From NCBI RefSeq assembly GCF_058153355.1, contig NZ_CM177019.1: DNA of 64,000 nucleotides, one strand, 5' to 3'. The notes below the pieces were generated by a model. The model had not been told where the DNA came from. It searched no databases and was given only the letters and a program-made list of their open reading frames with translations. Shown here piece after piece: positions 5,357 through 51,602 of this stretch (positions are counted from its first letter, which is position 1; every line of letters begins with the position of its first letter). Both the position numbers and the translations under genes were made by a program.

Positions 5357-5965
5357 TCAAGCCTTTGGCGGTTCGGTGCGGGCAAAACTTTCGCGGCTAA
5401 ACAGGTTTTCGACCAGTTTGACTAAGTGTGGGCGGTCGACACACCAGCCTGGCGCAACGCGGCGGAAATTGAGATATCCGACGGCACAGGCAATGGCGAT
5501 AGTCGCCAGATTGACCGTATCGGTTTTGAGCGTGCCATCGACCAGATATCCTTCCAGCACATCCAGACTGCGGTTGATTTTCTCCCGCTGGCGTAATAAT
5601 TCATCTTCAGACTGCTGCGGCGCCGGACGTGCCTGTTCACGCACCGACACCAGCCCGGCATCCATAATGCCATCCGCCAGCGCCTCAATTTTGCGCACCC
5701 GCAACGACTCCAGCGGATCGCGCGGCAACATCGCCGGAGCGACATTCATTAATTCAATATATTCAGCGATGATCGGCGAATCAAACCAACATTCGCCCTC
5801 TTCGGTCACCAGCACCGGCACTTTCCCTAACGGGTTAAATTGCGCCACGCCGTTGTCTGCGTTATAGGGCAGTTCATTAATAAATTCGAAAGTTATGCCC
5901 TTTTCTAACAACAGAATAGAAAGTTTGCGTACAAACGGGCTGGTGTAGCTACCGACGAGTTTCAT
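5357..5965 (-). CDS. yibF: glutathione S-transferase family protein YibF
   Basis: 202-aa ORF with GST N-terminal thioredoxin-like fold signature (SPFVRK...GKVPVL); conserved neighbour of selA. Confidence 0.9.
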
Positions 5966-6180: not shown

Positions 6181-8493
6181 ATGTCCTCAGAAGGATTACG
6201 TTTCACGCTGTCGGTGGCCGGTATCGTGGAGATGGCGACGGCGGTGGTGAGCTTCCGTCTGTACCAGCACCACTGCACGCCGTTCATCCTGGATGTGGAT
6301 ATCGCCAGCGGGCTGCCCGACCTGACGGCGGAGGATTTTCTGGAGAAGAGCGCGGTGCTGACGGTCTGGCAGGGTGATATCCCGCAGCGTTACGTCAGCG
6401 GTATCGTGACGGAGGTGCAGCTCGGTGAGAACAACGACTGGCAGATGCGTTATTCCCTGAGCATCAGCCCGCCGCTGTGGCGGGCAGGGTTACGGCAGAA
6501 CTTCCGTATCTTCCAGCAGCAGGACATTCAGACGATATCAGCACAGCTTCTGAGAGAGAACGGGGTGACGGCGTGGATGCCGCTGTTCTATGAGGCGCAC
6601 CCGGCGCGGGAGTTCTGCGTGCAGTACGGGGAGAGCGACCTGGCATTCCTGACCCGGCTGTGGGCGGAGGAAGGTATCTTCTTTTATGAGCGCTGCGGTC
6701 AGGAAGGGCCGGAGCAGAAGCTGGCGGTGTGTGATGACGTGGCGGGGCTGACGGGAATGGGGGCGCTGGCGTTTAACCCGAATACCACGACCGGGGGAAC
6801 GACGGAGTACATCAGTGAGTTTCGTTACCGTGCGCAGATAAGCGTGGCGTCGGTGGAGACGCAGGATTATACGTTCAAAACGCCGGGGTGGCCGGGGTAC
6901 TACAGCCATGACGGGGAGAGCCTGAACGGGCAGGGAACGCAGTACGAGATATTTGATTATCCGGGGCGTTTCAAGGATGAGCAGCATGGCCAGGATTTTG
7001 CGCGTTACCAGACGGAAGGGTGGCGGAACGGGGCGGAGACGGCGAGCGGGGTGTGTAACACGGCGCGGCTGTGGCCGGGAACGCGGTTCCGGCTGACGGG
7101 CCATCCCTCAGAGACGCTGAACCGGGAATGGCAGGTTGTGGGAAGCACACTGCGGGGAGAACAGCCGCAGGCGCTGCACGGGAGTCACGGTGAAGGGACG
7201 ACACTGAGCAATCAGTTTGAGGTGATACCGGCAGACAGGACGTGGCGTCACGCGCCGCTGCCGAAGCCGAAGGTGGACGGCCCGCAGAGTGCCATCGTGA
7301 CCGGGCCGAAGGGTGAGGAGATATTCTGCGACGAGCATGGCCGGGTACGGGTGAAGTTTCACTGGGACCGTTATCACGGGATGACGGAGGAGAGTTCGTG
7401 CTGGATACGGGTGTCGCAGGCATGGGCGGGACCGGGGTTCGGCAATCTGGCGATACCGCGTGTGGGTCAGGAAGTGATAGTGGACTTTCTGAACGGCGAC
7501 CCGGACCAGCCCATTGTGACGGGGCGGACCTACCATGAAGATAACCGTTCACCGGGGGATTTACCGGGCACGCGGACGCAGATGACCATCCGCTCGAAGA
7601 CCTATAAAGGAAGCGGCTTTAATGAACTGCGTTTCGAGGATGCGACGGACAGTGAGCAGGTGTATATCCACGCGCAGAAGAACATGGACACGGAGGTGCT
7701 TAACGACCGGACGACGGACGTGAAGCATGACCATACGGAGACCATCGGTAACGACCAGAAGATAAGGGTGGTGAAGGGGCAGACGGTTGAGGTCGGCACC
7801 AGAAAAGAAGGGGGTCACGACCAGAGTATCACGGTGGCGAACGACCGGCGCATAACGGTACGTAATGACCAGACGCTGAAGGTGACGAATGACCGGACGG
7901 TGAGCGTGAGTCACGATGACGGCCTGTATGTCAGAAACGACCGTAAAGTGACGGTGGAAGGGAAGCAGGAGCATAAGACGACGGGGAACCATATCAGCCT
8001 GGTGGAGGGAAAGCACAGTCTGGAGGTGAAGGGCGACCTGGCGGAGAAGGTGAGTGGCGCGCTGGGGATCAAGGTGGACGGGGATATCGTGCTGGAGAGC
8101 AGCAGCCGGATAAGCCTGAAAGTGGGCGGCTCGTTCGTGGTGATACACTCTGGCGGTGTGGATATTGCGGGGCCGAAGATAAACCTCAACGGGGGAGGCA
8201 GTCCGGGGACGCCAGTACAGACGTTACAACCGGTGGTACTGGAGGCGCTGGAGGATGAGAATGATGATGAGAACCCTGAAAAATATACTCTCCAGTTCCA
8301 TTTTACAGACGATGACGGGATACCGTATTCAGAGACACGCTACATTGCCTTCTTTGAGGACGGCACGCAGACGCGAGGGGAGACGGATGAAAATGGGTAT
8401 ACGGAAACATTCTCCACTGACAGCGAGCAGACAATCGAAGTCAGATTGTTGCATTTGAATATCGATATGATATGGGGAGGGATTAATGAATAG
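6181..8493 (+). CDS. vgrG: T6SS spike protein VgrG (copy 1) with C-terminal transthyretin-like extension
   Basis: N-terminus MSSEGLRFTLSV... typical of VgrG; GAGG RBS 5 nt upstream of the ATG at 6181 (the track ORF start at 6148 is an in-frame upstream ATG); gp27/gp5-like repeats; about 90 aa extension after the PKINLNGGGSPGTP end of the conserved core. Confidence 0.9.
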   Translation: MSSEGLRFTLSVAGIVEMATAVVSFRLYQHHCTPFILDVDIASGLPDLTAEDFLEKSAVLTVWQGDIPQRYVSGIVTEVQLGENNDWQMRYSLSISPPLWRAGLRQNFRIFQQQDIQTISAQLLRENGVTAWMPLFYEAHPAREFCVQYGESDLAFLTRLWAEEGIFFYERCGQEGPEQKLAVCDDVAGLTGMGALAFNPNTTTGGTTEYISEFRYRAQISVASVETQDYTFKTPGWPGYYSHDGESLNGQGTQYEIFDYPGRFKDEQHGQDFARYQTEGWRNGAETASGVCNTARLWPGTRFRLTGHPSETLNREWQVVGSTLRGEQPQALHGSHGEGTTLSNQFEVIPADRTWRHAPLPKPKVDGPQSAIVTGPKGEEIFCDEHGRVRVKFHWDRYHGMTEESSCWIRVSQAWAGPGFGNLAIPRVGQEVIVDFLNGDPDQPIVTGRTYHEDNRSPGDLPGTRTQMTIRSKTYKGSGFNELRFEDATDSEQVYIHAQKNMDTEVLNDRTTDVKHDHTETIGNDQKIRVVKGQTVEVGTRKEGGHDQSITVANDRRITVRNDQTLKVTNDRTVSVSHDDGLYVRNDRKVTVEGKQEHKTTGNHISLVEGKHSLEVKGDLAEKVSGALGIKVDGDIVLESSSRISLKVGGSFVVIHSGGVDIAGPKINLNGGGSPGTPVQTLQPVVLEALEDENDDENPEKYTLQFHFTDDDGIPYSETRYIAFFEDGTQTRGETDENGYTETFSTDSEQTIEVRLLHLNIDMIWGGINE

Positions 8494-8576
8494 AGAGTGA
8501 CCGCCTGTAATTGGCGTGTTTTTGCATAAATGGAACAGGGTTTTGTAGTGAAAACATATTGCTAAGGAGGATTTAT

Positions 8577-9422
8577 ATGGGAGATGGAAAGGGTAGTACG
8601 AGCGGAAAAAGCCAGAGCGGTGAACAGTGTGTAGTTTTAAAGGAGGGAAAAATTACTAATGATTTTAAAATAATGATGAGAGAGGCTCTGAAGGCGCTGA
8701 TGGCTGTATTGAAGAAAAGAGTAGAAGATCTTGGTGATAAATGGGGAGAGGAACAAAATCAGGAGTTTATAAATATATTTGGTATTGATGGAAATACTTA
8801 TATTAAATTAGAGTTCCCTTTCGGGGGGCGTAAGGTTATGTTTCCAGAGAATATAAAGGCAAGGGATTATATGAGAAATGGCGTTACTCGCCTGTATGAG
8901 ATATGTGGGGAATTATCTGTGGAAGGTGATTGTGTAGACGTTACTATTCATGACCATTTCCTCAAACGTGATGCCAATTGTAATCTTGTTCTTAATGACA
9001 AAGGGGGTAATGAATATGTTGACAAAGACGTAATCAGGCCCAAAACCGGTAACTTTGTGAATTGTACAGATAATGACGCTTATGCTGCCAATGTAACTTA
9101 CGATCAGATTTTGGGTGTAAAACCTGGAGGCTTTAAAAGTTTGGTAAGTATAACTATAGGACAAAGATTTATAGATAGGCCACCCACTGGGAAAAACTCT
9201 AAGGCATCGACACTCTGCCATGAACTATCTCACTTTATAAGGTACGGGGATTCATTTAAGTTTGGAGGCATGTGGACGGAAGATATGCCGGTAGATATAG
9301 AGTATAATACAGGTGACGAATATATTGTTCATGCCACTAAATTAAAAAATGATAAAAAATCAGAACTATTTCAGAATGCATATAATATCGAACGTTATTT
9401 CGAGATTCATGTACCATATTGA
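8577..9422 (+). CDS. hypothetical protein with HExxH zinc-metallopeptidase-like motif; candidate VgrG1 cargo effector
   Basis: ATG at 8577 preceded by AAGGAGG RBS; 281 aa; motif CHELSHF (HExxH) near the C-terminus followed by acidic NTGDEY; strongly AT-rich next to GC-rich vgrG; directly downstream of vgrG1. Confidence 0.6.
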   Translation: MGDGKGSTSGKSQSGEQCVVLKEGKITNDFKIMMREALKALMAVLKKRVEDLGDKWGEEQNQEFINIFGIDGNTYIKLEFPFGGRKVMFPENIKARDYMRNGVTRLYEICGELSVEGDCVDVTIHDHFLKRDANCNLVLNDKGGNEYVDKDVIRPKTGNFVNCTDNDAYAANVTYDQILGVKPGGFKSLVSITIGQRFIDRPPTGKNSKASTLCHELSHFIRYGDSFKFGGMWTEDMPVDIEYNTGDEYIVHATKLKNDKKSELFQNAYNIERYFEIHVPY

Positions 9423-9446
9423 TGCTTTTATTTGACGGGGGAGTAT

Positions 9447-10355
9447 ATGCTTGCTAGATGGATTGTTTTTATTGTTTTTTTTGCGCATCCAATATTTGCT
9501 TATGATATCTCTGGCGATTATGCTGTTCATTACAGATATGGGAAGTTATATTGGAATGGAGTAATGGACAAACTTGGTGTCTATCCTCGTGTAGAGCCGA
9601 CAAGGCTTAATTATTATGATTATTATGATGATCTTTCAGCCTATGCTGTTTTTCAATATTATACTATCAGTAAAAATGAGAGTCAGTATAATCAAGATAA
9701 AAATAAAATATATCTTCATCTTTCCGTGCATCAGAAAGAAAATATTGTAGCAGCTGCAGTGGTTTTATCGAATAAAAGCCAGGGATCTTATTTTGTTCAT
9801 CGACTAACTCTTCCTCTTGACGTTAACGGCGGGCCTTACTCTTCCTTGTGTAGTGGTGTGTTTATACCGATAATGGATAACATTCAGTTGGATTTTTTAA
9901 AAAAAACAAAATGTAGCTTTGGTGAATGGAAAAATAAATCCGTTTGGCACGAGATATTAACAGGGAAAGAGCTATCCTTTGATGTCATATTGAACGATTA
10001 TTATGCCTTTTTACCGGGCATTCATCGTTATAATATAGGAACGGTAGAATTTACAATAGTTAATCAAGAGTGGTTTACAGAACAATGTATATATGAGTAT
10101 TTTCTTTCTATTATGAACTGGCGGGCAGAAAGTGAGTGTACTAATCCTATAGATAAAATAAGATATGGTATAGAGGAGTGGCGGGTTTGGAGAATTTGTG
10201 GACCTTATCGTGGGTCAGGTCTATTTCAGGATTTTTTAGCACGCTTTGGCTATCATGGCGGTAATGATAATATATTCAAAATAAGATCAAATCAGGTTGT
10301 GGTTACTATTGATGGGGATAGGGCATCTCCTCCTTATTCGTTGAGGAATTATTAA
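9447..10355 (+). CDS. hypothetical secreted protein (N-terminal signal peptide); candidate immunity or partner of the upstream HExxH protein
   Basis: ATG at 9447 with GGGGGAG RBS; N-terminus MLARWIVFIVFFAHPIFA is a typical Sec signal peptide; Tyr/Trp-rich, AT-rich; starts 25 nt after the stop of the previous gene. Confidence 0.55.
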   Translation: MLARWIVFIVFFAHPIFAYDISGDYAVHYRYGKLYWNGVMDKLGVYPRVEPTRLNYYDYYDDLSAYAVFQYYTISKNESQYNQDKNKIYLHLSVHQKENIVAAAVVLSNKSQGSYFVHRLTLPLDVNGGPYSSLCSGVFIPIMDNIQLDFLKKTKCSFGEWKNKSVWHEILTGKELSFDVILNDYYAFLPGIHRYNIGTVEFTIVNQEWFTEQCIYEYFLSIMNWRAESECTNPIDKIRYGIEEWRVWRICGPYRGSGLFQDFLARFGYHGGNDNIFKIRSNQVVVTIDGDRASPPYSLRNY

Positions 10356-10510: not shown

Positions 10511-12712
10511 ATGTCATTAAAAGGGCTGCGCTTTACGCTGACGGTGGACGGACTGGTGCCGGAGACGTTTGCGGTGGTGGATTTCCGCCTCACGCAGGCA
10601 TACTCATCGCCGTTCGTCCTGGATGTGGACGTTGCCAGCGACTCGTTCCGCCAGACGGCGGAGAAGCTGCTGGAGAAGGGGGCCGTACTGACCATCTGGC
10701 AGGGTGGCACGGCGCTGCGTTATGTGAGCGGTGTGGTGTCGGGGTTCGGCATGAAGGAGCACAACGGCTGGCAGATGCAGTACCACCTTCAGATACGTCC
10801 GCCCCTGTGGCGCAGCGGGCTGCGCCAGAACTACCGAATCTTCCAGCAGCAGGACATTCAGGCCATCTCCGCCACGCTGTTAAACGAGGACGGAGTGACG
10901 CAGTGGACGCCGCGCTTTTATGAGAGCCACCCGGCACGGGAGTTCTGCGTCCAGTACGGTGAAAGCGACATGGCGTTTCTGACCCGGCTGTGGGCGGGGG
11001 AAGGCATCTTCTTTTATGACAGATACGCTGACGACAGCCCGGAGCAGACGCTCACGCTGTGCGATGATGTGGCGGGCCTGCCGGTGTACGGGGAGATACC
11101 GTTTAACCCGAACACCCGTGAGGTGACGACGGCGTGCATCAGCCTGTTCCGCTACCAGGCGCAGGTGCGGCCCTCGCAGGTGCGTTCAAAAGACCACACG
11201 TTTAAGGTGCCGGACTGGCCGGGTATTTACATTGAGGATGCTGAAAACCTCAACGGGCAACTGAAGCAGTACAAAATCCTGGACTGGCCGGGGCGCTACA
11301 AGGACGAGCAGCATGGTCAGGACTTTACCCGCTACCGGCTGGAAGGGCTGCGTAACAGTGCTGAAACCGCCACAGGTATCAGTAACTCCCCGGCGCTGTG
11401 GCCGGGACGGCGGTTCACCTTGACGGGGCATCCGGTACAGGGAGCGAACCCGAACCGTGAGTGGCAGGTGGTGAGCAGCACGCTGACGGGGAGCCAGCCG
11501 CAGGCGCTGCACGGGAGTCACGGTGAAGGGACGACACTGAGCAATCAGTTTGAGGTGATACCGGCAGACAGGACGTGGCGTCACGCGCCGCTGCCGAAGC
11601 CGAAGGTGGACGGCCCGCAGAGTGCCATCGTGACCGGGCCGAAGGGTGAGGAGATATTCTGCGACGAGCATGGCCGGGTACGGGTGAAGTTTCACTGGGA
11701 CCGTTATCACGGGATGACGGAGGAGAGTTCGTGCTGGATACGGGTGTCGCAGGCATGGGCGGGACCGGGGTTCGGCAATCTGGCGATACCGCGTGTGGGT
11801 CAGGAAGTGATAGTGGACTTTCTGAACGGCGACCCGGACCAGCCCATTGTGACGGGGCGGACCTACCATGAAGATAACCGTTCACCGGGGGATTTACCGG
11901 GCACGCGGACGCAGATGACCATCCGCTCGAAGACCTATAAAGGAAGCGGCTTTAATGAACTGCGTTTCGAGGATGCGACGGACAGTGAGCAGGTGTATAT
12001 CCACGCGCAGAAGAACATGGACACGGAGGTGCTTAACGACCGGACGACGGACGTGAAGCATGACCATACGGAGACCATCGGTAACGACCAGAAGATAAGG
12101 GTGGTGAAGGGGCAGACGGTTGAGGTCGGCACCAGAAAAGAAGGGGGTCACGACCAGAGTATCACGGTGGCGAACGACCGGCGCATAACGGTACGTAATG
12201 ACCAGACGCTGAAGGTGACGAATGACCGGACGGTGAGCGTGAGTCACGATGACGGCCTGTATGTCAGAAACGACCGTAAAGTGACGGTGGAAGGGAAGCA
12301 GGAGCATAAGACGACGGGGAACCATATCAGCCTGGTGGAGGGAAAGCACAGTCTGGAGGTGAAGGGCGACCTGGCGAGGAAGATTACCGGTGCGCTGGGA
12401 ATGAAGGTCCGGAATGAAATCGTACTGGAGAGTGGCGGTAAAATCACCCTAAAGGTGGGTGGTTCGTTTGTGGTCATCCATTCAGGGGGCGTGGACATCG
12501 TCGGGCCGAAAATCAATCTCAATAGCGGCGGTAGTCCGGGAACGCCGGTGCCGACGCTACGACCGGCGGTTTTGAAAGCGCTGGCAGATTATGACAATGG
12601 CGGACCTGGAACTGAAGGGGCGGAGCCACCACGGAAAAGTGTACAGGAAGCCTTTGATCCTCCCCAGCAGGATAAGGTACCGCCACAACGGCCGGGAAGA
12701 TTCTCACGATAA
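10511..12712 (+). CDS. vgrG: T6SS spike protein VgrG (copy 2) with short Pro-rich C-terminal tail
   Basis: 733-aa ORF, N-terminus MSLKGLRFTLTVDGL...; central about 0.88 kb is nucleotide-identical to vgrG1; GGAGG RBS upstream. Confidence 0.92.
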   Translation: MSLKGLRFTLTVDGLVPETFAVVDFRLTQAYSSPFVLDVDVASDSFRQTAEKLLEKGAVLTIWQGGTALRYVSGVVSGFGMKEHNGWQMQYHLQIRPPLWRSGLRQNYRIFQQQDIQAISATLLNEDGVTQWTPRFYESHPAREFCVQYGESDMAFLTRLWAGEGIFFYDRYADDSPEQTLTLCDDVAGLPVYGEIPFNPNTREVTTACISLFRYQAQVRPSQVRSKDHTFKVPDWPGIYIEDAENLNGQLKQYKILDWPGRYKDEQHGQDFTRYRLEGLRNSAETATGISNSPALWPGRRFTLTGHPVQGANPNREWQVVSSTLTGSQPQALHGSHGEGTTLSNQFEVIPADRTWRHAPLPKPKVDGPQSAIVTGPKGEEIFCDEHGRVRVKFHWDRYHGMTEESSCWIRVSQAWAGPGFGNLAIPRVGQEVIVDFLNGDPDQPIVTGRTYHEDNRSPGDLPGTRTQMTIRSKTYKGSGFNELRFEDATDSEQVYIHAQKNMDTEVLNDRTTDVKHDHTETIGNDQKIRVVKGQTVEVGTRKEGGHDQSITVANDRRITVRNDQTLKVTNDRTVSVSHDDGLYVRNDRKVTVEGKQEHKTTGNHISLVEGKHSLEVKGDLARKITGALGMKVRNEIVLESGGKITLKVGGSFVVIHSGGVDIVGPKINLNSGGSPGTPVPTLRPAVLKALADYDNGGPGTEGAEPPRKSVQEAFDPPQQDKVPPQRPGRFSR

Positions 12713-12721
12713 GGACTGAAC

Positions 12722-15211
12722 ATGAAAATCAGCCATCCCATCAGGGATAAAGAAGGCAAAGAGTTTCGCTCACTGGATGAGATAATGCGGCTTATTGACA
12801 AAGAAGCGCACGGAACCTGGCTGCTGGGTGGAAACGGGCTGTGGCACGGCGGGATACATATCAGTGACGTGTCTAATCCGTTATCAGCCCTGAAACCGGA
12901 TACCGCCGCTACCGGAGAACCGGTTCCTCTTCAGTTTATGGCCGATGGCACCATTGCGGCGTACCGGATAAATAATGATTACCTGAAAGGCCCCTACAAA
13001 GGGCAGCAACTCCGTTACAGCAGCACATTTGTTCTGGTGAAATCGCAGTGCCAGCCAGACCCGCAAAAAAAAGAAAGCTGGCTGGAATTTTACTGTCTCT
13101 ATATGCATCTGGCCCCGGTGAACGATTATCCCGGCTCCCCCTGCTATAAAGTTAAAACCGGGCATGGTGGCATATTGCTGCACCGATACATCCCGGGAAA
13201 GAACGGCCTTCCCGAGGGGCAGGAAAGCGGAGATCATGCCACGTACTGGATACCCCCGAAAATCAGCGGAAACAGGACACTTAATGCGGGAGATCGGTTT
13301 GTGTCATCCCGGACCGGACGTTTTTACGTGACCAATAACGGCCAGCCGGTCCTGACGACATTCGGACTGGTTCGCCTGCTGGAAGGCAATAAACCGGGGA
13401 ATGAGCAGTACTGGGTGACCCTGGATCCGGATCTGATGGAGTCAGATGGCGAAATACAGATGCTGATGCCTGAGTGGATGCAGAAGGCGAAGGCAAAAGG
13501 CATTTTTGACTCGGTACAGACGGTCGACGAAACGGAAGAGTGGAAAGTCAGTGCCGGAACACCGGTCGGATTTATGGGATGCGAGGATTATCCTGGCGAG
13601 GGAAGCGGTGAGATTGAGCGCGAGTGGTTCGTCCATCTGGAGGTTCTGAGTACAGACCCGAATATGCCAAAGTTCTTATCCAACCCGGCAGGCGTTAAGG
13701 GAGAAAAACGGACTGTTCTGGCACCAAAAGGGATAATTTTATACACCCGGCAGGCCGTTCCGGGACAGGAGGTATTTACCGCAACCGCAGCCACGCTGGG
13801 TGCTCAGCGCGTTCTTCCGCGGGAAGCCACGACACCAGTCACGGATGAATCGCAGCAGTGGTGGTTTAATATCACCGGAACCGGCTGGCTGCCACAAAAG
13901 GATGTTGAAGAGGCCGGACAGTATGATTTACTGAAGCTGGGTTTTCAACCGCTGGAGGAGAACAGCAGCGGTGACATGACGTACAGCCCGTACGAAGGAT
14001 GGGTGCCGGAAGCGTTTGACTCAATAAGCCGTGCCGCAGAACAGGGAGATGAGTGGCTGTATGAGCAGGTACCGCCCTTTTATCGTGAGCTGATGGCGGG
14101 TATGGATCAGGACGGTGATGGAAAAGTGACGGAGGAAGAGATCAGACAGGCGCTGATCGTGCGTGAACCACTGGTGAGAAATGTGGTGAATCATCTGATA
14201 GTTAAACACCACAGCGAATGGTACGGAGGGCGCTCGACAGGGCGGTGGGAAGGATTTTATAAAGATCTGGATACAGAGGAAGTGGCATACTGTGAGAAGT
14301 GGCAGCTGGATCTGGAGTGGATGAGCGGGGTATCTCCGTTTAATAGTGATGATGCTGTGTGGCATTTTCATCCGGTTGTGTTTTTGGACGCTATTAATTC
14401 CAAATCTGTGTGTGCTTGCAACAGAGATATAACATTAGATGAATTAAAAAAAGTTGCTCCTGCAGTAAGTGAAGGTCTTCTCAAAAGGTACCTCTACGAT
14501 ATAAATGCAGGGTTTATTCGGTTTGGTATGACCACTTGTAGAGAAAAAGCCCATTTTCTTGCTCAAATTATTCACGAGAGCGGTTATTTTAGATATACCA
14601 AAGAAATTAATGGTGAATCAGCTTCATATAGTCCGTGGTATGGCCGAGGCTTAATACAAGTTACAGGCGAAAGTAATTACACCGCCTATGGGGAATATAT
14701 CAATGAGGACGTAACATCTTCAGATTCCGCAAGAGATAAACTCATATCCTCCCCACATTGCGTATTATCTGCGTTTTGGTATTTCAATATATTCAAAAGA
14801 ATAAATGAAGATGCTAAAAATGATGATTTTAATAAAATTACAGTAGTGATTAATGGAGGGTATAATCATTATGATGAACGGTTGTCGATATTTAATAAAT
14901 TGGTTACCTCACTTGCTGCCGAGCATTTAAATCAGAAAGAAATGAACGACGATTTCTTGTTTGATGATAGTGACGTATATGATAATAAAGTATATGCTTT
15001 GGGATGGGGGATATGGCATGATCCTGATAGCTCCCGAAGAGGGACGATCAAGAGTAACGAAGAAGCATTAAAAGGTTATAGAAGGGCGAAAGAATTAATT
15101 GACCTGCATCCGTTTCCTCAGGAAGGGCGTGAGGGTGATAGAAAAGTATATGGAATAGAAAAAAGGAATATATCCACATTTGTAGAGAGACGAATAACTG
15201 AACTGGAGTAA
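12722..15211 (+). CDS. modular T6SS effector candidate: unknown N-terminal domain, EF-hand, C-terminal GH19 (chitinase/lysozyme-like) peptidoglycan hydrolase domain
   Basis: 829-aa ORF 9 nt after the vgrG2 stop; canonical EF-hand loop DQDGDGKVTEEE; C-terminal motifs AHFLAQIIHESG and YGRGLIQVTGESNY match GH19-family catalytic signatures; the C-terminal third is AT-rich compared with the N-terminal part. Confidence 0.75.
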   Translation: MKISHPIRDKEGKEFRSLDEIMRLIDKEAHGTWLLGGNGLWHGGIHISDVSNPLSALKPDTAATGEPVPLQFMADGTIAAYRINNDYLKGPYKGQQLRYSSTFVLVKSQCQPDPQKKESWLEFYCLYMHLAPVNDYPGSPCYKVKTGHGGILLHRYIPGKNGLPEGQESGDHATYWIPPKISGNRTLNAGDRFVSSRTGRFYVTNNGQPVLTTFGLVRLLEGNKPGNEQYWVTLDPDLMESDGEIQMLMPEWMQKAKAKGIFDSVQTVDETEEWKVSAGTPVGFMGCEDYPGEGSGEIEREWFVHLEVLSTDPNMPKFLSNPAGVKGEKRTVLAPKGIILYTRQAVPGQEVFTATAATLGAQRVLPREATTPVTDESQQWWFNITGTGWLPQKDVEEAGQYDLLKLGFQPLEENSSGDMTYSPYEGWVPEAFDSISRAAEQGDEWLYEQVPPFYRELMAGMDQDGDGKVTEEEIRQALIVREPLVRNVVNHLIVKHHSEWYGGRSTGRWEGFYKDLDTEEVAYCEKWQLDLEWMSGVSPFNSDDAVWHFHPVVFLDAINSKSVCACNRDITLDELKKVAPAVSEGLLKRYLYDINAGFIRFGMTTCREKAHFLAQIIHESGYFRYTKEINGESASYSPWYGRGLIQVTGESNYTAYGEYINEDVTSSDSARDKLISSPHCVLSAFWYFNIFKRINEDAKNDDFNKITVVINGGYNHYDERLSIFNKLVTSLAAEHLNQKEMNDDFLFDDSDVYDNKVYALGWGIWHDPDSSRRGTIKSNEEALKGYRRAKELIDLHPFPQEGREGDRKVYGIEKRNISTFVERRITELE

Positions 15212-15216
15212 TTGAT

Positions 15217-15627
15217 ATGAAAGTTAATTTATTGGTTTTACTGTTTTGTTTGGTGCCTTGTTGTTTATTGGCTAAACAACAAACAACGGTAGGCTGTTTT
15301 AGCGCTGGGAAAACAAATTTAAAGTTTGTTGAAATATCGTCTGGCGATATTTTTTTAGGTTATGTGATTTATGAGAAATCCTCAAAATTTATACCTCTTG
15401 CGTTTATAAATAAATTAGAAGTGACTTTCGATGACAGGCCTTCTGAATTTTCTTATGCATGGAGCGAGGTTGTAAATGGAAAAATTAATGGGTTGTATGT
15501 TGTTTCCACACAAGGTGCAAGATTTAATTTGTTTCATTATAAATCAATAAGTGGGAAAACAACTGAGTTTGAAGAAAATATTGAGGCATATAATGATGAT
15601 GGTACTGATTGCAAATGGACTGGATGA
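15217..15627 (+). CDS. putative periplasmic immunity protein for the GH19-type effector
   Basis: 136-aa ORF starting 6 nt after the effector stop; N-terminal signal peptide MKVNLLVLLFCLVPCCLLA; AT-rich like the toxin domain. Confidence 0.6.
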   Translation: MKVNLLVLLFCLVPCCLLAKQQTTVGCFSAGKTNLKFVEISSGDIFLGYVIYEKSSKFIPLAFINKLEVTFDDRPSEFSYAWSEVVNGKINGLYVVSTQGARFNLFHYKSISGKTTEFEENIEAYNDDGTDCKWTG

Positions 15628-15789
15628 CCATTGTGCAGTTTTTTATGAAATCGATGCTGTGTTATTAAAATAATAATGCGACTAGGTTGAATTTGTTTAT
15701 TATTAATTTAAATGTTTTATGATTTTAAGTTAGACATGAATAACTGACTGGAAAATTATTTTTGAGGGATATCGTACAGGCAGGCAGGG

Positions 15790-17070
15790 AAAGATCACGT
15801 AACGCTGCTTTTTTGTACTATACAATTCGCATTTTATGTTTGAAAATTGAGATATTCCTCATTACCTGAAGCTGTTTTTTATTGCTTATACATGATCAAA
15901 TACTCCTTACATAATTAAGGAGAACAAAATGGTACTTAAAAAATTGATGGAACATATTTCTATTATCCCCGATTACAGACAAGCCTGGAAAGTGGAACAT
16001 AAATTATCGGATATTCTACTGTTGACTATTTGCGCCGTTATTTCGGGTGCAGAAGGCTGGGAAGATATAGAGGATTTTGGGGAAACACATCTCGATTTTT
16101 TGAAGCAATATGGTGATTTTGAAAATGGTATTCCTGTTCACGATACCATTGTCAGAGTTGTATCCTGTATCAGTCCTGCAAAATTTCACGAGTGCTTTAT
16201 TAACTGGATGCGTGACTGCCATTCTTCAGATGATAAAGGCGTCATTGCAATTGATGGAAAAACGCTCCGGCACTCTTATGACAAGAGTCGCCGCAGGGGA
16301 GCGATTCATGTCATTAGTGCGTTCTCAACAATGCACAGTCTGGTCATCGGACAGATCAAGACGGATGAGAAATCCAATGAGATTACAGCTATCCCAGAAC
16401 TTCTTAACATGCTGGATATTAAAGGAAAAATCATCACAACTGATGCGATGGGTTGCCAGAAAGATATTGCAGAGAAGATACAAAAACAGGGAGGTGATTA
16501 TTTATTCGCGGTAAAAGGAAACCAGGGGCGGCTAAATAAAGCCTTTGAGGAAAAATTTCCGCTGAAAGAATTAAATAATCCAGATCATGACAGTTAAGCG
16601 ATTAGTGAAAAGAGTCACGGCAGAGAAAAAATCCGTCTTCATATTGTTTGCGATGTCCCTGATGAACTTATTGATTTCACGTTTGAATGGAAAGGTCTGA
16701 AGAAATTATGCGTGGCAGTCTCCTTTCGGTTAATAATAGCAGAACAAAAGAAAGAGCCAGAAATGACGGTCAGATATTATATCAGTTCTGCTGATTTAAC
16801 CGCAGAGAAGTTCGCCACAGCAATCCGAAACCACTGGCACGTGGAGAATAAGCTGCACTGGCGTCTGGACGTGGTAATGAATGAAGACGACTGCAAAATA
16901 AGAAGAGGAAACGCCGCAGAATTATTTTCAGGGATACGGCACATCGCTATTAATATTTTAACGAATGATAAGGTATTCAAGGCAGGGTTAAGACGTAAGA
17001 TGCGAAAAGCAGCCATGGACAGAAACTATCTCGCGTCAGTCCTTGCGGGGAGCGGGCTTTCGTAATCTTG
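15790..17070 (+). mobile_element. H-repeat (H-rpt) element, ISAs1 family, nearly full length
   Basis: Encodes the H-repeat-associated transposase-like protein; its 5' end, including about 140 bp upstream of the ATG, recurs at 19865-20290 and in degenerate form at 21975-22635; element boundaries are approximate. Confidence 0.75.
15929..17065 (+). pseudogene. ISAs1-family (H-repeat-associated) transposase, interrupted by a single in-frame TAA
   Basis: ORFs 15929-16597 and 16712-17065 are in the same frame (669 and 114 nt offsets are multiples of 3) and separated only by TAA at 16598-16600; combined length about 378 codons, the size of intact H-rpt proteins. Confidence 0.75.
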
Positions 17071-17075
17071 CCCTG

Positions 17076-19492
17076 GAGGTGATACCGGCGGACAGGACGT
17101 GGCGTCACGCGCCCCTGCCGAAGCCGAAGGTGGACGGCCCGCAGAGTGCCATCGTGACCGGGCCGAAGGGCGAGGAGATATTCTGCGACGAGCATGGCCG
17201 GGTACGGGTGAAGTTTCACTGGGACCGTTATCACGGGATGACGGAGGAGAGTTCATGCTGGATACGGGCGTCGCAGGCATGGGCGGGACCGGGGTTCGGC
17301 AATCTGGCGATACCGCGTGTGGGTCAGGAAGTGATAGTGGACTTTCTGAACGGCGACCCGGACCAGCCCATTGTGACGGGGCGGACATACCATGAGGACA
17401 ACCGTTCACCGGGGGATTTACCGGGCACGCGGACGCAGATGACCATCCGCTCGAAGACCTATAAAGGAAGCGGCTTTAATGAACTGCGTTTCGAGGATGC
17501 GACGGACAGTGAGCAGGTGTATATCCACGCGCAGAAGAACATGGACACGGAGGTGCTTAACGACCGGACGACGGACGTGAAGCATGACCATACGGAGACC
17601 ATCGGTAACGACCAGAAGATAAGGGTGGTGAAGGGGCAGACGGTTGAGGTCGGCACCAGAAAAGAAGGGGGTCACGACCAGAGTATCACGGTGGCGAACG
17701 ACCGGCGCATAACGGTACGTAATGACCAGACGCTGAAGGTGACGAATGACCGGACGGTGAGCGTGAGTCACGATGACGGCCTGTATGTCAGAAACGACCG
17801 TAAAGTGACGGTGGAAGGGAAGCAGGAGCATAAGACGACGGGGAACCATATCAGTCTGGTGGAGGGAACGCACAGTCTGGAGGTGAAGGGCGACCTGGCG
17901 AGGAAGATTACCGGTGCGCTGGGAATGAAGGTCCGGGATGAAATCGTACTGGAGAGTGGTGGTAAAATCACCCTGAAGTGGGTGGCTCGTTTGTGGTCGT
18001 TCATTCTGGTGGTGTGGATATTGTCGGACCGAAAATAAATCTGAATTGCGGGCGCAGTCCGGGGACGCCGATAAATACACTACAACCGGCAGTTATGGAC
18101 GCTCTGGCTGACGAGCAGTATGACAGAGGGAATGCTGGCGGCGGGAATGACGGAGAGCCTAGTGATGAGGATGAATCAGAAGGTGGAGAAGAAGACAAGG
18201 ACGATTCAGATGAACTGGTAATTCCTGTATACGCAAAATCTTGTCTGAAGGAGAAAGGCTGCACTGATGCTGGTACGACCATGGAGCCATCGAAACATTT
18301 TGGTGATATGGCTCTATTTGCCCAGCCAGTGGAGGATGACTGTTGCGGCTATGGTACACACTATCATGACGATGAAGTGGAGCAACTTGCGCAGTCAGCA
18401 AAAAAAACCTCAGGAGCGAACTCACTGACGGGGGAAATGACAGTTGCGTCAGCGGGTGTTGCGGTTCCACTAGCGGCGGAACAGTCTGCGGGAGTTTTAA
18501 CTCGCGTATGGGGAACATTAGGGGCATGGGGTGGAGAAGGTTTTTTAAGTGTATCAAAAACGGTGCCAGCCCTTGGTGTCCTAGTATCAGCACTATATCC
18601 AATACCTGCCGGTGAAGGTAGTGATAAAGTTCCTGGACGGGATGAACAGTGGCTCGAAAATGAGCTACGTCGTAAAGCGCAATCTGGAGAGACGGCAGCT
18701 ACGCGGGCGCGCTTTCTCTTTCAGCGGAATACTGCTGGTGAATTGAGGACATACGGATACCACACACCCGCAGGTTCGGAACTTGAAGGTGTTCGGGTAG
18801 CATTGATGGAGTGGAATAAGGAATTTTCCCGTTATGAATTTTCACCTGTGTCTGATTCGGGACCAAAAATATTTTGGACGCCTGCAAAGCCAGAAGGTTC
18901 AGAGCAGCCCATACACACCGGAACTCCTGTCGAACCAGTTGATCTACCTGATATTTATGTTAATCCGATACCCGATGAAAAAACAGATATCACCACGCCG
19001 CCTTCTCCAATGCCGGAGGAGCGAAATTTTAATGACTGGATACTTGTCTTTCCTGACGGTGCGGAATTAACACCAATATATGTGTATCTGAAAACTGCAA
19101 GGGATGTAGCGGGAACAGTAACAGGTAAGGGGGAGGTGTTAGCAGGTACAGGAAGATGGCTGTCGCAGGCGGGGAAAAGCTTAGGAGTGCCAATTCCACA
19201 ACAGGTCGCAAATAAACTTCGGAGTAAGTCATTTAACAATTTTGATGAATTCATGGCAGCTTTCTGGACTGCTGTAGGTGAATGTCCAGAACTATTGAGC
19301 CAATTTAATAAAGCTAACCAAACGTTGATAAAGCGTGGACGCGCACCTTATACTATATCAAGACAAAGAGTTGGGGGGCGAGGTACATTTGAAATTCATC
19401 ATATTGACGAAATCCAATATGGGGGAGAAGTCTATGATATTGATAATCTTAGAGTAAACACACCTAAAAACCACATACGATTGCATAAATAA
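17076..19492 (+). pseudogene. 5'-truncated, frameshifted vgrG (copy 3) fused to colicin E9-like HNH DNase toxin domain
   Basis: vgrG homology begins abruptly at about 17076, right after the H-rpt end, so the N-terminal half is missing; a 1-nt deletion near 17977 (ctgaagtgggtgg here, ctaaaggtgggtgg in vgrG2) splits the reading frame; C-terminal domain ...GRGTFEIHHIDEIQYGGEVYDIDNLRVNTPKNHIRLHK matches the colicin E9/E7 DNase HNH motif. Confidence 0.8.
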
Positions 19493-19505
19493 AAAGGAGG
19501 TAGTA

Positions 19506-19778
19506 ATGGAGTTTAAAAATAATCTAGAAGATTATACGGAAGATGAATTTATCGAACTTCTAAATAATTTTTTTGAACCACCTGAGGAATTGCATGGCGA
19601 TAAGTTGTCGAAGTTTATTGATGATCTTGTAAGTCATTTTATTAGAATCACTCAGCACCCAGATGGTAGTGATTTGATATTCTATCCATCTGAAGATAGA
19701 GAAGATAGTCCCCAAGGGATTGTTGATGAGTTAAAACGATGGCGAGCATCGCAGGGGCTAGGATGCTTTAAAATATAA
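19506..19778 (+). CDS. colicin DNase-type immunity protein (Im9/Im7-like)
   Basis: 90-aa ORF 14 nt after the DNase stop with GGAGG RBS; MEFKNNLEDYTEDEFIELL...HPDGSDLIFYP...DSPQGIV...RWRASQG aligns with the Im9 family (DYTE.EF, HP.GSDLI.YP, DSP.GIV). Confidence 0.85.
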   Translation: MEFKNNLEDYTEDEFIELLNNFFEPPEELHGDKLSKFIDDLVSHFIRITQHPDGSDLIFYPSEDREDSPQGIVDELKRWRASQGLGCFKI

Positions 19779-19864
19779 TGAAAATAAATACTCATCATAT
19801 TTTATTAAAATGATTGGTGTTTTTGTTATTAACCTTAAACCACTTCCTGAGAAGGTGGTACAGG

Positions 19865-20295
19865 GAAAGATCACCAGAAGTACACTTTTTGTACTAAATA
19901 ATTCGCATTTTATGTTCAATAATTGAGATATTCCTCATTACCTGAGGCTGTTTTTTATTGCTTATACATGATCAAATACTCCTTACATAATTAAGGAGAA
20001 CAAAATGGAACTTAAAAAATTGATGGAACATATTTCTGTTATTCCTGATTACAGACAAGCCTGGAAAGTGGAACATAAATTGTCGGATATTCTACTTTTG
20101 ACTATTTGCTCCGTCATTTCTGGTACAGAAGGCTGGCAAGATATAGAGAATTTTGGGGAAACACATCTCGATTTTTTGAAGCGACATGGTGATTTTTGAA
20201 ATGGTATTCCTGTTCACATACCATTGCCAGAGTTGTATCCTGTATCAGCCCTGCAAAATTTCATGAGTGCTTTATTAAAAGGAAACCAGGGGCGG
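19865..20295 (+). mobile_element. H-repeat 5' fragment (includes truncated 64-codon transposase ORF 20005-20199)
   Basis: Near-identical to 15790-16210 of the full H-rpt; the ORF ends prematurely (GDF then stop); joined through a short internal H-rpt piece (GNQGRL) to effector-derived sequence. Confidence 0.75.
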
Positions 20296-21465
20296 CTTAA
20301 TATCACCGGAACCGGCTGGCTGCCACAAAAGGATGTTGAAGAGGCCGGACAGTATGATTTACTGAAGCTGGGTTTTCAACCGCTGGAGGAGAACAGCAGC
20401 GGTGACATGACGTACAGCCCGTACGAAGGATGGGTGCCGGAAGCGTTTGACTCAATAAGCCGTGCCGCAGAACAGGGAGATGAGTGGCTGTATGAGCAGG
20501 TACCGCCCTTTTATCGTGAGCTGATGGCGGGTATGGATCAGGACGGTGATGGAAAAGTGACGGAGGAAGAGATCAGACAGGCGCTGACCGTGCGTGAACC
20601 ACTGGTGAGAAATGTGGTGAATCGTCTGACAGTCAGACACCACAGCGAGTGGTACGGCGGTCGCTCGACGGGACGCTGGGAAGGGTTTTATAAAGATCTG
20701 GACACCGAGGAAGTGGCATACTGTGAAAAGTGGCAGCTGGATCTGGAGTGGATGAGCGGGGTGTCTCCGTTTAATAGTGATGATGCTGTGTGGCATTTTC
20801 ATCCGGTTGTGTTTTTGAATGCTATTAATAATAGCAATTACCCAAAAACTCCTGTGAATAATGAACTTATTCCATTGGAATTTTTACGATTTTATAACGG
20901 AGATACCATTGATGATGCAGACTATGAAAATGCTGCAAGGACACTACAATGCGAAGTGGCTGCAATTAAAGCTGTTGCAAAAACTGAAACTGGTAGTTCC
21001 GGTAGCTATTTTAAATTTGAACAAGAAGATGATTACGTCCCCTCAATTCTTTTTGAAAGACATCATTTCCATCGATATACGAATGGTGTGTATGATTCTC
21101 AACCTGATATTTCCAACAGCCGTTCTGGCGGTTATGGAACACGATCGGAGCAATATCAAAAATTACTTCGTGCATATGTTTTAGATAAGCAAGCTGCGCT
21201 TAAATCGGCATCGTGGGGTAAATTTCAGATATTGGCTTCAAATTACCAAGCTACCGGGTACTCTTCGCCCGAAGAGTTTATAATATCGATTTCAGAGTTA
21301 GAGAAAAACCATCTGGCGGCATTCATTAACTTCATAAAATCTAATCCTGTATTATTGCGTGCTATTAGAGATAAAGATTGGCTTAACTTTGCTCTATGTT
21401 ATAATGGGCAAAGTCAGCGAGGATATGATGACAGAATAAGGGCTAATTATGAGCAATATAGATAG
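20224..21465 (+). CDS. orphan, N-terminally truncated effector module: conserved EF-hand middle region plus alternative C-terminal N-acetylmuramidase (DUF3380-like) domain
   Basis: Residues from NITGTGWLPQKDVEEAG through HPVVFL are about 95% identical at nucleotide level to 13865-14395 of the 829-aa effector, then diverge into a C-terminus with ILFERHHFHRYT, SWGKFQILASNY and LCYNGQSQ motifs typical of the DUF3380 muramidase family; the first 20 codons derive from H-rpt sequence in another frame. Confidence 0.7.
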   Translation: MPELYPVSALQNFMSALLKGNQGRLNITGTGWLPQKDVEEAGQYDLLKLGFQPLEENSSGDMTYSPYEGWVPEAFDSISRAAEQGDEWLYEQVPPFYRELMAGMDQDGDGKVTEEEIRQALTVREPLVRNVVNRLTVRHHSEWYGGRSTGRWEGFYKDLDTEEVAYCEKWQLDLEWMSGVSPFNSDDAVWHFHPVVFLNAINNSNYPKTPVNNELIPLEFLRFYNGDTIDDADYENAARTLQCEVAAIKAVAKTETGSSGSYFKFEQEDDYVPSILFERHHFHRYTNGVYDSQPDISNSRSGGYGTRSEQYQKLLRAYVLDKQAALKSASWGKFQILASNYQATGYSSPEEFIISISELEKNHLAAFINFIKSNPVLLRAIRDKDWLNFALCYNGQSQRGYDDRIRANYEQYR

Positions 21466-21898
21466 AGCATTAATTTTTATTTTTTTATCTGGAATTCCCT
21501 GGACTCTACACGCAGGAAATAATTATTTTTTATGTAATACATCCAAAGGAACTTTGTCATTAACAAGTTTTGGTGAAACGTTGATTTATGAAATGAATAG
21601 TCAGCATGGGAATAAATTTCAATTCATTTCAGATGGACCAATGTATTCAGGATTTTTTTATAATCATTACTCCAGATTTCAAACGGATTACTTTAGCGTT
21701 AGTTTTATTCAAAGTGGATATAAGTACTCCGTGTTTAGCAATTACGACAACGGTAGTAACATGCGAGGGGTTAGTGTCATTGATATGAAAACAAAAAAAG
21801 AATACGTTTATAATTGCAAAGATTATAAAGTGGACAGGCTTTATAATCTGAAAAAAAAGCTTAAATGTGATATTAATAATGTACTAAGTTGTCAGTAA
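21449..21898 (+). CDS. putative periplasmic immunity protein for the orphan muramidase domain
   Basis: 149-aa ORF overlapping the toxin stop by 17 nt; N-terminal signal peptide (MSNIDRALIFIFLSGIPWTLHA); AT-rich. Confidence 0.55.
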   Translation: MSNIDRALIFIFLSGIPWTLHAGNNYFLCNTSKGTLSLTSFGETLIYEMNSQHGNKFQFISDGPMYSGFFYNHYSRFQTDYFSVSFIQSGYKYSVFSNYDNGSNMRGVSVIDMKTKKEYVYNCKDYKVDRLYNLKKKLKCDINNVLSCQ

Positions 21899-21904
21899 AT
21901 TGTA

Positions 21905-22640
21905 TCTTACAACGTTCGGGCGGTACGATTTACTGAAGCTGGCTTTTCATAGGCTGGAGGAAAACAGCAAGGGTAATAAAGGTAAAGACCATATAACGCC
22001 GATTTTTTGCACTAAACAATTAGCACTAAATGTCCAATAATCAAGATATCCCTTATTATTTAATAAGTGTTTTCATAGCTTATATATATTCAGACACTCC
22101 TTACATAAACAAGGAGAAAAAATGGAACTTAAAAAATTAATGGAGCATATTTCTACTGTCCCGATTACAGACAAGTCTGGAAAGTAGAGTATAAATTATC
22201 AGATATCCTAGTGCTGATTATTTTCGCCATCCTTTCCGGAGCTGAAGGATGGGAAGATATAGAGGATTCTGGTGAGACTCATCTCGATTTGTTGAAGCAA
22301 TATGGTGATTTTTAATATGGTATTCCTATTCACGATATCATTGCCAGAGTTGTGTCCTGTATCAGTCCTGGAAAATTTCACGAGTTCTTTATTAGCTGGA
22401 TGTGTGACTGTCATTCTTCAGATAATAAAACCATCATCGCAATAGATGGAAAAGCACTCCAGCACTTTTTTGATTAGCATCGTCGCAGAGGAACAATTCA
22501 TAATCATTGCGATCTCGACGATGTATAGTCTGATCCTGCGGCAGAACAAGACGGATAAAAAATCTAATGAGAGCACACTCATCAAGAACTTCTCAACCTA
22601 ATGAATATTAAAGAAAAATCATCGCAGCCAATGAAGTAAT
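21905..22640 (+). mobile_element. degenerate third module remnant: effector middle-region fragment plus decayed H-repeat 5' portion
   Basis: 21920-21975 resembles the effector YDLLKLGFQPLEENS coding sequence; 22124-22635 is a diverged H-rpt 5' part with several in-frame stops. Confidence 0.6.
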
Positions 22641-22697: not shown

Positions 22698-23834
22698 TCA
22701 ATGATCCAAATAAAGATAATGCATCCAACTGGTCATTCTTAGCAGCACTTTCCGCATCACCGAAACATGGCTGAAATGGTCGGAGTAAACCGCCACCTGG
22801 GCGTAGATACCGTCGGGTAAGGCATCAATATCAGCGTTAGGGTCCAGTTCGATGGTTCCCAGCACACCGTCCGTGCCGGGCACGACGGTTAATGATTGCA
22901 GTACCCCTTGCGCCTGATACGAACCACCAGGCACCACCGGCAAGATGCTGGTCAGTTTGCCGTGGAATACCTGCCCAGGTAGCGCGTTAAACACCACTTC
23001 CGCATCATCGCCGGGTTTCAGACGTAACAGCGAGTTCTGCCGAAATTGGGCGACAATTTGCCGTTTTTGCTCGGGGATGAAAACCATCACCGGACGTAGC
23101 GGCAAGGCAGCTGCGTATGTACCTGGGCGGATCAGTACCTGAGTAACGTAGCCATTGCTTGGTGCGCGAATGACAGTCTGCTCAAGGTTATATTTTGCTT
23201 CGGTAAGTTGCGCTCTTAAGCTCACAATCTGCGATTGCTCGCCGTTAACCATACTGTCGAGCTGACTCTGGATCTGCGCCTGCTCCGCCACCGAGCCTTT
23301 CACCAGCGCGTCCTGCGCGAGGAAGTTTTGCCGCGCATCGTCGATGTCACGTTCCGAGAACGGATTCACTGCCGCCTGGCTGCCTTTCAGGTAACGTTGA
23401 TAATTTTTAAACAAGCGGTCACGCTCCGCTGAAACCTGGGTGGTGTTGGCCTGCGCTTCAGTGAGCTGCGCGCGCAGCGTCTTTATATTATGCGTCGCCG
23501 TCATCAGGTCAGCCTGAAGCCTGTCAACTCGCACCTGGTAACGAACCGGGTCGAGTTTAAAAAGCACCTCGCCCTTTTGAATAAGCTGATTATTCTTGTC
23601 AGTGACTTCAGTAACAATTCCCGTCACCTGTGGCGTGATGGGGATCGCTATCACTGCCTTTTGCGCGGTAAAAGTGTAAGGGTGGTTGTAGTTCATCAAC
23701 AAAATCAAACCACTCACCAGAAACACGCCTCCCAGCGCCGCCGTCGCCAGCGTCCACTGATTTACCGGAATGCGGAAGATTTTAAAGACCGCCCACGCCA
23801 GCGCCACGTAAGTTAAAACAATCAATAGATCCAT
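22698..23834 (-). CDS. yibH: HlyD-family membrane fusion / inner membrane protein YibH
   Basis: 378-aa ORF with N-terminal TM helix, coiled-coil middle and beta-barrel C-terminus typical of HlyD/EmrA-like proteins. Confidence 0.85.
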
Positions 23835-26649: not shown

Positions 26650-26990
<341 letters not shown>

Positions 26991-50173: not shown

Positions 50174-51377
<1,204 letters not shown>

Positions 51378-51602
51378 AAATCGCGGAAGGGATGAAACAA
51401 CAGCGCCTGACGGCGCTGTGTCTGGCATGCCTGCAATCCGGGAGACTGGACCAGGAAAAAACTTGCAGGCCGTAACAGTATCTACCAAATTGTGCAGATT
51501 TAATATTTTGCAGGAACCGCGTAGGCATGATAAGCGTAGCGCATCAGGCAATTTTGTGTTTGCCATCAGCTTCAAGGGCTGGTATTCCAGCCCTTGTTCG
51601 TG

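Follow-up and report, generated by a model that had tools for sequence, protein, structure and literature searches.

The stretch analysed here, called the window below (64,000 nucleotides of contig NZ_CM177019.1), carries two tandem vgrG genes, vgrG1 and vgrG2, and a remnant of a third, vgrG3, in an island of an E. coli chromosome. vgrG1 and vgrG2, which code for predicted spike proteins of a type VI secretion machinery (type VI secretion system, T6SS), share an uninterrupted core of 882 bp that is identical at every nucleotide and is set between diverged flanks. Comparison with related strains points to a recent, non-reciprocal gene conversion within the chromosome, in which the resident vgrG1 was copied into vgrG2 after the split from the sister strains; we put the probability of this reading at about 0.85.

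Direction and limits of the probable conversion tract

The longest exact match between the two genes runs from 7162 to 8043 in vgrG1 and from 11495 to 12376 in vgrG2, an offset of 4333. A preliminary description of the sequence had equated 7165-8045 with 11495-12375 base for base. The exact repeat is real, but the first of these intervals was shifted by 3: pairing 7165 with 11495 (offset 4330) gave merely 28% identity, and in the correct register 7165-8045 was 99.8% identical to vgrG2, with positions 8044-8045 already different. The identity of 882 bp is confirmed with this 3-base correction. The third copy, said to differ by only a few single-nucleotide polymorphisms (SNPs), was also found, with 10 SNPs in the 825 bp of 17076-17900 (98.8% identity). 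It aligned to 7219-8043 and 11552-12376, and its homology began abruptly at 17076. Near-identity between vgrG2 and vgrG3 continued for another 58 bp (12377-12434 and 17901-17958), showing that the 3' breakpoints differ from pair to pair.

On the 5' side of the core, vgrG1 and vgrG2 had 58-88% nucleotide identity and 63% protein identity, lower than the 75% or so first estimated for the 5' thirds of the two proteins. On the 3' side, identity of about 70% persisted for about 200 bp, and the tails were unrelated after about 8270 in vgrG1 and 12600 in vgrG2. Synonymous divergence (dS, by the Nei-Gojobori method) between the two genes was 0.87 in the N-terminal 326 codons, 0 in the 294 codons of the core and 1.96 in the 69 codons that follow. 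A Sawyer-type run test on 600 polymorphic sites in eight alleles gave vgrG1 and vgrG2 an unbroken run of 127 concordant sites; in 10,000 permutations the longest run was 17. The identity tract is longer than chance or the divergence of the pair allows, and the flanks are old.

The alleles of the window were aligned with those of strains MFDS1022581 and N96, and alleles of strain ET350 were used as an outgroup. Among 5426 complete E. coli genomes, vgrG1 and vgrG2 were both present at 95% identity or more in three (MFDS1022581, MFDS1019527 and N96), all of which carry them in the same island between yibF and yibH. The dS of flanking housekeeping genes between the window and these relatives was 0.035-0.11. 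In MFDS1022581 and N96, vgrG2 differed from vgrG1 at 25 sites in 7185-7257 and at 7314, 7815, 7998 and 8012 (vgrG1 coordinates), and at all 29 of these tabulated sites the vgrG2 of the window had the vgrG1 base. Many of the vgrG2 states of the sister strains were common to the ET350 alleles, indicating that they are ancestral. Site 7398 (11731 in vgrG2) was G in vgrG1 and vgrG2 of the window only; it was A in eight other alleles (vgrG3 of the window, both sister vgrG1, both sister vgrG2, N96 vgrG3 and both ET350 alleles). The donor was unaltered, as vgrG1 of the window matched vgrG1 of MFDS1022581 and N96 over 7162-7985 save at 7398. The exact shared length was 882 bp between the paralogs of the window, 587 bp between the vgrG1 orthologs (window and MFDS1022581) and 416 bp between the vgrG2 orthologs. 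When the same core was compared between vgrG1 and vgrG2 of MFDS1022581, there were 34 nucleotide differences and the dS was 0.115.

The vgrG1-type bases at 29 of 29 sites, the lineage-specific G at 7398 and the greater closeness of paralogs than of orthologs all support the gene conversion or homologous recombination that the preliminary description had proposed. The alignment across strains, recommended there for mapping the tracts, bounded the tract at 828-882 bp with vgrG1 as the donor. In vgrG1 coordinates its minimum extent is 7185-8012 (828 bp) and its maximum extent 7162-8043 (882 bp). In the sister strains, vgrG1 and vgrG2 shared 500 bp exactly and were about 99% identical over 0.72 kb, with 9 differences over 7264-8043, indicating that the new tract was laid over an older homogenised tract. 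The new conversion would have begun in this older tract and run about 100 bp further 5' into sequence of about 75% identity. It may have proceeded by RecA-dependent heteroduplex formation and repair between the direct repeats.

The products of vgrG1 and vgrG2 are predicted to be bona fide VgrG/TssI spike proteins of the T6SS. Pfam domains in VgrG1 were Phage_GPD (residues 33-328, E 2.6e-75), Phage_base_V (385-451) and Gp5_trimer_C (from 468); Phage_GPD was matched in VgrG2 at residues 30-329 (E 2e-74). Phage_base_V and Gp5_trimer_C/Gp5_C were present in all three copies, and Phage_GPD was missing from the truncated vgrG3. Scores against TIGR03361 were 589 bits for vgrG1 and 587 bits for vgrG2 (cutoff 186), and the closest solved structure was P. 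aeruginosa VgrG1 (4MTK; E 9e-93, aligned over residues 35-536). The 882-bp tract is in frame in both genes. It begins at the end of the gp27-like domain (residue 328), takes in the gp5 OB-fold and the greater part of the beta-helix, and ends about 75 codons short of the end of the conserved helix, leaving the gp27-like N-terminal domain, the last 75 or so helix residues and the tail allele-specific. Judged from this domain layout, the converted segment would be the cargo-neutral middle of the spike, with the hub domain and the cargo-specifying C-terminus kept distinct. Conversions that reached the cargo-specifying C-terminus of a working vgrG may have been removed by selection.

Alternative explanations

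Several points weigh against conversion of vgrG2 by vgrG1 as described above. The 3' end of the tract, 7986-8043, is patchy: vgrG1 of MFDS1022581 and N96 had five SNPs there, four of them common to ET350 vgrG-A, so that the polarity at this end is ambiguous. The older near-identity over 7263-7985 fits conversion and duplication with flank replacement equally well. The exact VgrG1 and VgrG2 proteins of the window were not found in public collections, and a 73-mer over the vgrG2 junction was absent from metagenome contigs, leaving the converted allele with no independent sighting. An assembly or polishing effect is formally possible, if unlikely. Both the dependence on RecA and the action of selection at the ends of the tract are inferred. 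Chi sites were considered as a cause of the tract and rejected, as none lies in the island and all five in the window are at 26.6-33.6 kb.

An artefact, in which the repeat was collapsed in assembly or homogenised in polishing, is highly improbable. An exact repeat of 882 bp is of the type that short-read polishing can homogenise, and the missing independent sighting of the allele would fit such an error. However, three independent complete genomes had two vgrG genes arranged in this way, with an exact match of 500 bp and identity of about 99% across 0.72 kb. Further, copy 3 kept its 10 SNPs, and the unique colinear flanks of each copy matched independent genomes. The change from the sister vgrG2 also includes 25 differences within 73 bp, where reads would map uniquely, and the G at 7398 was available from no template except vgrG1 of the window itself. 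This private base, missing from the eight other alleles, bears equally on import from another strain, by which the vgrG2 core would have been replaced by a foreign vgrG1-like core. The tract is identical to the resident vgrG1 at this base and throughout, and since the alleles are so rare among complete genomes, it is much more parsimonious to place the donor in the resident gene, at a distance of 4.3 kb. Import is therefore very unlikely, even though E. coli vgrG alleles appear to be population-wide mosaics. The N-terminus of N96 vgrG3 is that of vgrG1, with 88-100% identity in segments of 90 bp (at least 94% in most), and is followed by another C-terminus. In ET350 vgrG-B and the allele of PapRG-04-4, the sequence shared with vgrG1 is confined to the first 360-450 bp (97-99% identity). 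A vgrG fragment truncated at its 5' end was also present in PapRG-04-4, downstream of the M35 module.

Duplication of a whole vgrG, followed by replacement of the 5' and 3' flanks around an untouched core, would likewise produce two genes that are identical in the middle and diverged on either side. It may account for the older layer at 7263-7985 only; for the recent tract it leaves the loss of 29 vgrG2-type states and the shared derived SNP unexplained and calls for two or more additional imports whose breakpoints lie on either side of a single tract, which makes it very improbable. The chance that no recombination was involved is close to nil. If the core were kept identical by purifying selection on the OB-fold and the beta-helix, together perhaps with constraints on codons or RNA, no other part of the gene should be better conserved; among distant E. 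coli alleles this was the case, with 80-95% identity to vgrG1 in the core and 60-80% in the flanks. Yet distant alleles are still 5-20% different in the core, showing that general conservation does not yield 100% identity. Synonymous sites were identical too (dS 0, against 0.87-1.96 in the flanks), and the sister-strain paralogs had 34 differences in the same tract, a comparison that refutes this reading. No Rfam match was found anywhere in the window, which speaks against an RNA constraint; the same result led us to reject the idea that the core holds a structured RNA or another non-coding element.

The vgrG3 remnant and the core as a possible substrate for deletions

vgrG3 is not a third intact vgrG but a 5'-truncated, frameshifted remnant that abuts an ISAs1-family insertion sequence (IS). 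It starts exactly at the right end of this element, so that the whole gp27 domain is missing, and the loss of 1 nt at about 17977 (AAGGTGGG to AAGTGGG) breaks its frame in two. The ISAs1 element (15785-17075) shared 95% identity with a complete ISAs1 of ET350 across 1266 bp, and its right end at 17075 was found in several loci. The third module pairs a pyocin DNase with a Colicin_Pyocin immunity gene. Positions 17076-20400 of the window were colinear with the full-length vgrG-pyocin locus at ybfA of N96 (98.3% identity). The three relatives had no vgrG3 module at the yibF site and carried the full-length version at ybfA-ybgA instead; in ET350 a full-length vgrG-pyocin module was at yncG-pptA. 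We take the ybfA-ybgA and yncG-pptA sites to be the rhsC and rhsE sites of K-12, respectively. The vgrG core was ruled out as the entry point of the module, as ISAs1 sequence brackets the insertion (15785-16203 and 19861-20278). Together with the onset of vgrG3 at the right end of ISAs1, these brackets indicate that ISAs1 homology, not the vgrG core, brought the module in.

Within 8044-8115 (vgrG1 coordinates), vgrG3 of the window was vgrG2-type, whereas N96 vgrG3, otherwise 98% identical to it, and ET350 vgrG-A were vgrG1-type. The simplest reading is that a second conversion took place, from vgrG2 into vgrG3, of at least 72 bp and with a left limit between 7543 and 8044 (vgrG1 coordinates). 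This second patch sits in the C-proximal region that was left unconverted between the intact vgrG1 and vgrG2. Its position in a pseudogene would fit selection that guards the cargo-specifying sequence in working genes only, though it is no proof of it.

The VgrG-pyocin DNase fusion was broken in three of three loci, each time at a different place: by the 1-nt deletion at about 17977 in the window, about 240 bp further 3' in N96 (locus L003, 6963-10418), and in ET350 (locus L004, 4964-8418) where it is annotated as frameshifted. The immunity gene was intact in each. This looks like independent decay of the toxic module with immunity kept.

RecA-dependent recombination between direct repeats can delete or duplicate the intervening DNA. 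The three core copies would provide substrates for deletions of 4,333 bp (vgrG1-vgrG2), 5,524 bp (vgrG2-vgrG3) and 9,857 bp (vgrG1-vgrG3), each of which would join one N-terminus to another C-terminus and its cargo, giving chimeric spikes. Such repeat-mediated deletion is plausible. No deletion variant was seen in the complete E. coli genomes, of which only the 3 of 5426 noted above carry these alleles, and the single module gain seen, that of vgrG3, used ISAs1 homology rather than the vgrG core. By analogy with orphan Rhs toxin activation in Salmonella or pilin cassette variation, the shared core could be a standing switch region, at which RecA crossover or conversion of the expressed vgrG1 or vgrG2 with the silent, 5'-truncated vgrG3-pyocin cassette would produce subpopulations loading different toxins; we consider this unlikely. 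If such a switch operated, conversion from vgrG2 could repair the 1-nt frameshift of vgrG3. The identical OB-fold and beta-helix could also permit mixed VgrG1/VgrG2 trimers with two cargoes per spike.

The effector island, related systems and other features

The chromosomal order is that of E. coli, yiaY-selB-selA-yibF, the island, then yibH-yibI-mtlADR, and the yibF-yibH site is presumably the rhsA site of K-12. From its gene content (Table 1), the window appears to hold a T6SS-1-type vgrG effector island with two intact vgrG-effector-immunity modules and a decayed third. No tss core genes were found within the 64-kb window. A vgrG allele with 82% identity in strain 04-00955 adjoins hcp and tssBCEFG, with DUF4123 and Tle1-like cargo; an hcp/tssBCEFG layout of this kind belongs to the T6SS-1 class (PMC10711316). 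The GC content was 55-62% in the vgrG genes and 32-38% in the cargo.

Table 1. Features of the vgrG island and its borders (coordinates in the window).
Feature	Coordinates	Strand	Basis or remarks
yibF (glutathione S-transferase), left island border	5357..5965	-	RefSeq name at colinear locus
vgrG1	6181..8493	+	770 aa; maximal open reading frame (ORF) from TTG 6148
Core copy 1, probable donor	7162..8043	+	codons 328-621 of vgrG1; same 882 bp as in copy 2
Cargo 1, putative M35-like metallopeptidase effector, HELSH motif	8511..9422	+	orthologue annotation in N96
Putative immunity protein 1	9432..10355	+	position downstream of effector
vgrG2	10511..12712	+	733 aa; Pfam/NCBIfam architecture as vgrG1
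Core copy 2, probable recipient	11495..12376	+	converted tract at least 11518-12345, at most 11495-12376
Cargo 2, 829-aa effector	12722..15211	+	EF-hand (Pfam) and C-terminal endolysin/GH19-like domain
Putative immunity protein 2	15217..15627	+	conserved in MFDS1022581 and N96 islands
ISAs1-family (H-repeat) element, full-length, transposase frame broken	15785..17075	+	NF033564; DDE_Tnp_1
vgrG3 remnant	17076..19492	+	5'-truncated VgrG core fused to Pyocin_S and colicin/pyocin DNase (Pfam)
Core copy 3	17076..17900	+	825 bp, 10 SNPs relative to copies 1 and 2
vgrG2-type patch in vgrG3	17901..17972	+	left limit within 17400-17901
Colicin/pyocin DNase immunity gene, intact, effectively orphan	19506..19778	+	Pfam Colicin_Pyocin, E 1.5e-32
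ISAs1 5' fragment	19861..20278	+	direct repeat of 15785-16203, 91.6%
N-terminally truncated effector	20287..21465	+	EF-hand and N-acetylmuramidase
Putative immunity protein for muramidase effector	21449..21898	+	conserved in MFDS1022581 and N96 islands
Third ISAs1 fragment	21980..22626	+	80% identical to 15786-16438
yibH (HlyD family), right island border	22698..23834	-	ORF; RefSeq annotation of colinear locus

Searches of Pfam and NCBIfam with the cargo and immunity ORFs mostly gave no matches. The basis for an M35 assignment of cargo 1 is weak (the name 'M35 family metalloendopeptidase' in N96 and a match to PDB 1G12 with E 0.048), and no Pfam match was obtained. Putative immunity protein 1 had no family match in Pfam or NCBIfam, and by eye its N-terminus looks like a signal peptide. 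The region 8511-10355 holds two ORFs in the window and in MFDS1022581; in N96 (locus L002, 4276-6060) it is annotated as one 594-aa 'M35 family metalloendopeptidase', reflecting either a fusion or stop difference between strains or an annotation artefact. Residues 605-732 of cargo 2 matched the PDB endolysins 9MS7 and 4OK7, and the RefSeq name is 'chitinase'. Immunity roles in modules 1 and 2 are putative and assigned from position only, and no family match was found for the product of the putative immunity gene that follows the muramidase effector.

The EF-hand region of cargo 2 (13856-14398) was 96% identical over 543 bp to 20287-20829, the start of the truncated muramidase effector, showing that effectors of the island have an internal module in common but differ in the catalytic C-terminus (GH19-like in one, Muramidase PF11860 in the other). 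The junction of the truncated effector with the ISAs1 fragment lies at about 20278-20287. IS insertions were present in the island of every strain examined, and those of the sister islands are lineage-specific: ISEc62 (IS21 family) splits yibH in MFDS1022581 (locus L001, 32477-35741), and ISCro1 (IS66 family) splits the muramidase gene in N96 (locus L002, 12992-15607).

Concerted evolution of bacterial paralogs by gene conversion is familiar from tufA/tufB and the rRNA operons. The vgrG1-vgrG2 pair resembles these in non-reciprocal copying, in paralogs of one genome that are closer than orthologs, and in derived SNPs shared within the genome. However, only an internal segment is homogenised here, and both ends are kept divergent. 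The island also resembles Rhs elements, with a GC-rich conserved core, AT-rich tips and cargo, H-repeat/ISAs1 sequences and truncated orphan modules downstream. Here too the core repeats are recombination substrates, and the modules occupy what would be the rhsA, rhsC and rhsE sites of K-12. Unlike in Rhs elements, the repeated gene is vgrG, not rhs, and there are no YD repeats. Orphan activation by recombination has been demonstrated for Salmonella Rhs; in the vgrG island it would be hypothetical. Displacement of Rhs C-termini and arrays of orphan toxins are described in Jackson 2009 and Koskiniemi 2014, as cited in PMC5361080.

Reshuffling of vgrG-3 and effector-immunity genes in V. cholerae, with GENECONV-type detection, was reported by Kirchberger et al. 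2017 (PMC5361080). As in that system, a conserved part of vgrG is the homology anchor, the variable 3' end and the effector and immunity genes are exchanged or displaced, and a partial vgrG and orphan immunity genes are left downstream. The Vibrio work, however, centres on transfer between strains into single-copy vgrG loci, whereas here donor and recipient are tandem paralogs of one chromosome and the cargo has not moved. Intrachromosomal recombination in T6SS variable regions is known from Pantoea (10.1101/2023.03.17.533219). E. coli vgrG islands with VT effector/immunity modules have been catalogued (Ma et al. 2018, as summarised in PMC6730261 and PMC10711316). According to these summaries, an orphan vgrG of the T6SS-1-type family lies outside the T6SS core cluster and is followed each time by a toxin and an immunity gene, and the toxins include, as here, an M35-like peptidase, a lysozyme-like enzyme or muramidase, and a DNase. 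The summaries catalogue cargo, and we did not find nucleotide-identical cores or conversion of tandem vgrG genes described in them. A literature search found no paper on this conversion between tandem vgrG paralogs in E. coli, nor on concerted evolution of vgrG. The case is a new instance of the familiar recombinational mosaicism of vgrG and Rhs islands and involves no new mechanism. It offers a clean, datable tandem vgrG conversion with donor, recipient and tract limits all resolved, and it goes some way to explain why effector islands of E. coli stay recombinogenic. It is also a caution for annotators and assemblers that exact repeats of 0.9 kb inside vgrG islands are real.

Downstream of the island, a 1571-aa YadA-like trimeric autotransporter adhesin is encoded at 30915-35630. 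Its repeats (32226-33843) are tandem units of about 250 bp with 71-85% identity, and MFDS1022581 has an orthologue with an annotated length of 4977 bp, indicating that repeat number differs between strains. Two copies of an IS110-family element of about 1.3 kb, 97% identical, were found at 35678-36971 and 50194-51485, one of them directly after the adhesin gene. The ORF at 35882-36862 (326 aa) has DEDD_Tnp_IS110 and Transposase_20 domains, and by eye the element resembles IS621. In the colinear region of MFDS1022581, no IS or transposase is annotated at either position. Just downstream of mtlA, at 26660-26945, there is a tandem duplication of about 135 bp (94.7% identical), which is probably a REP/BIME-type intergenic repeat and is also present in MFDS1022581 (locus L001, 38569-38853).

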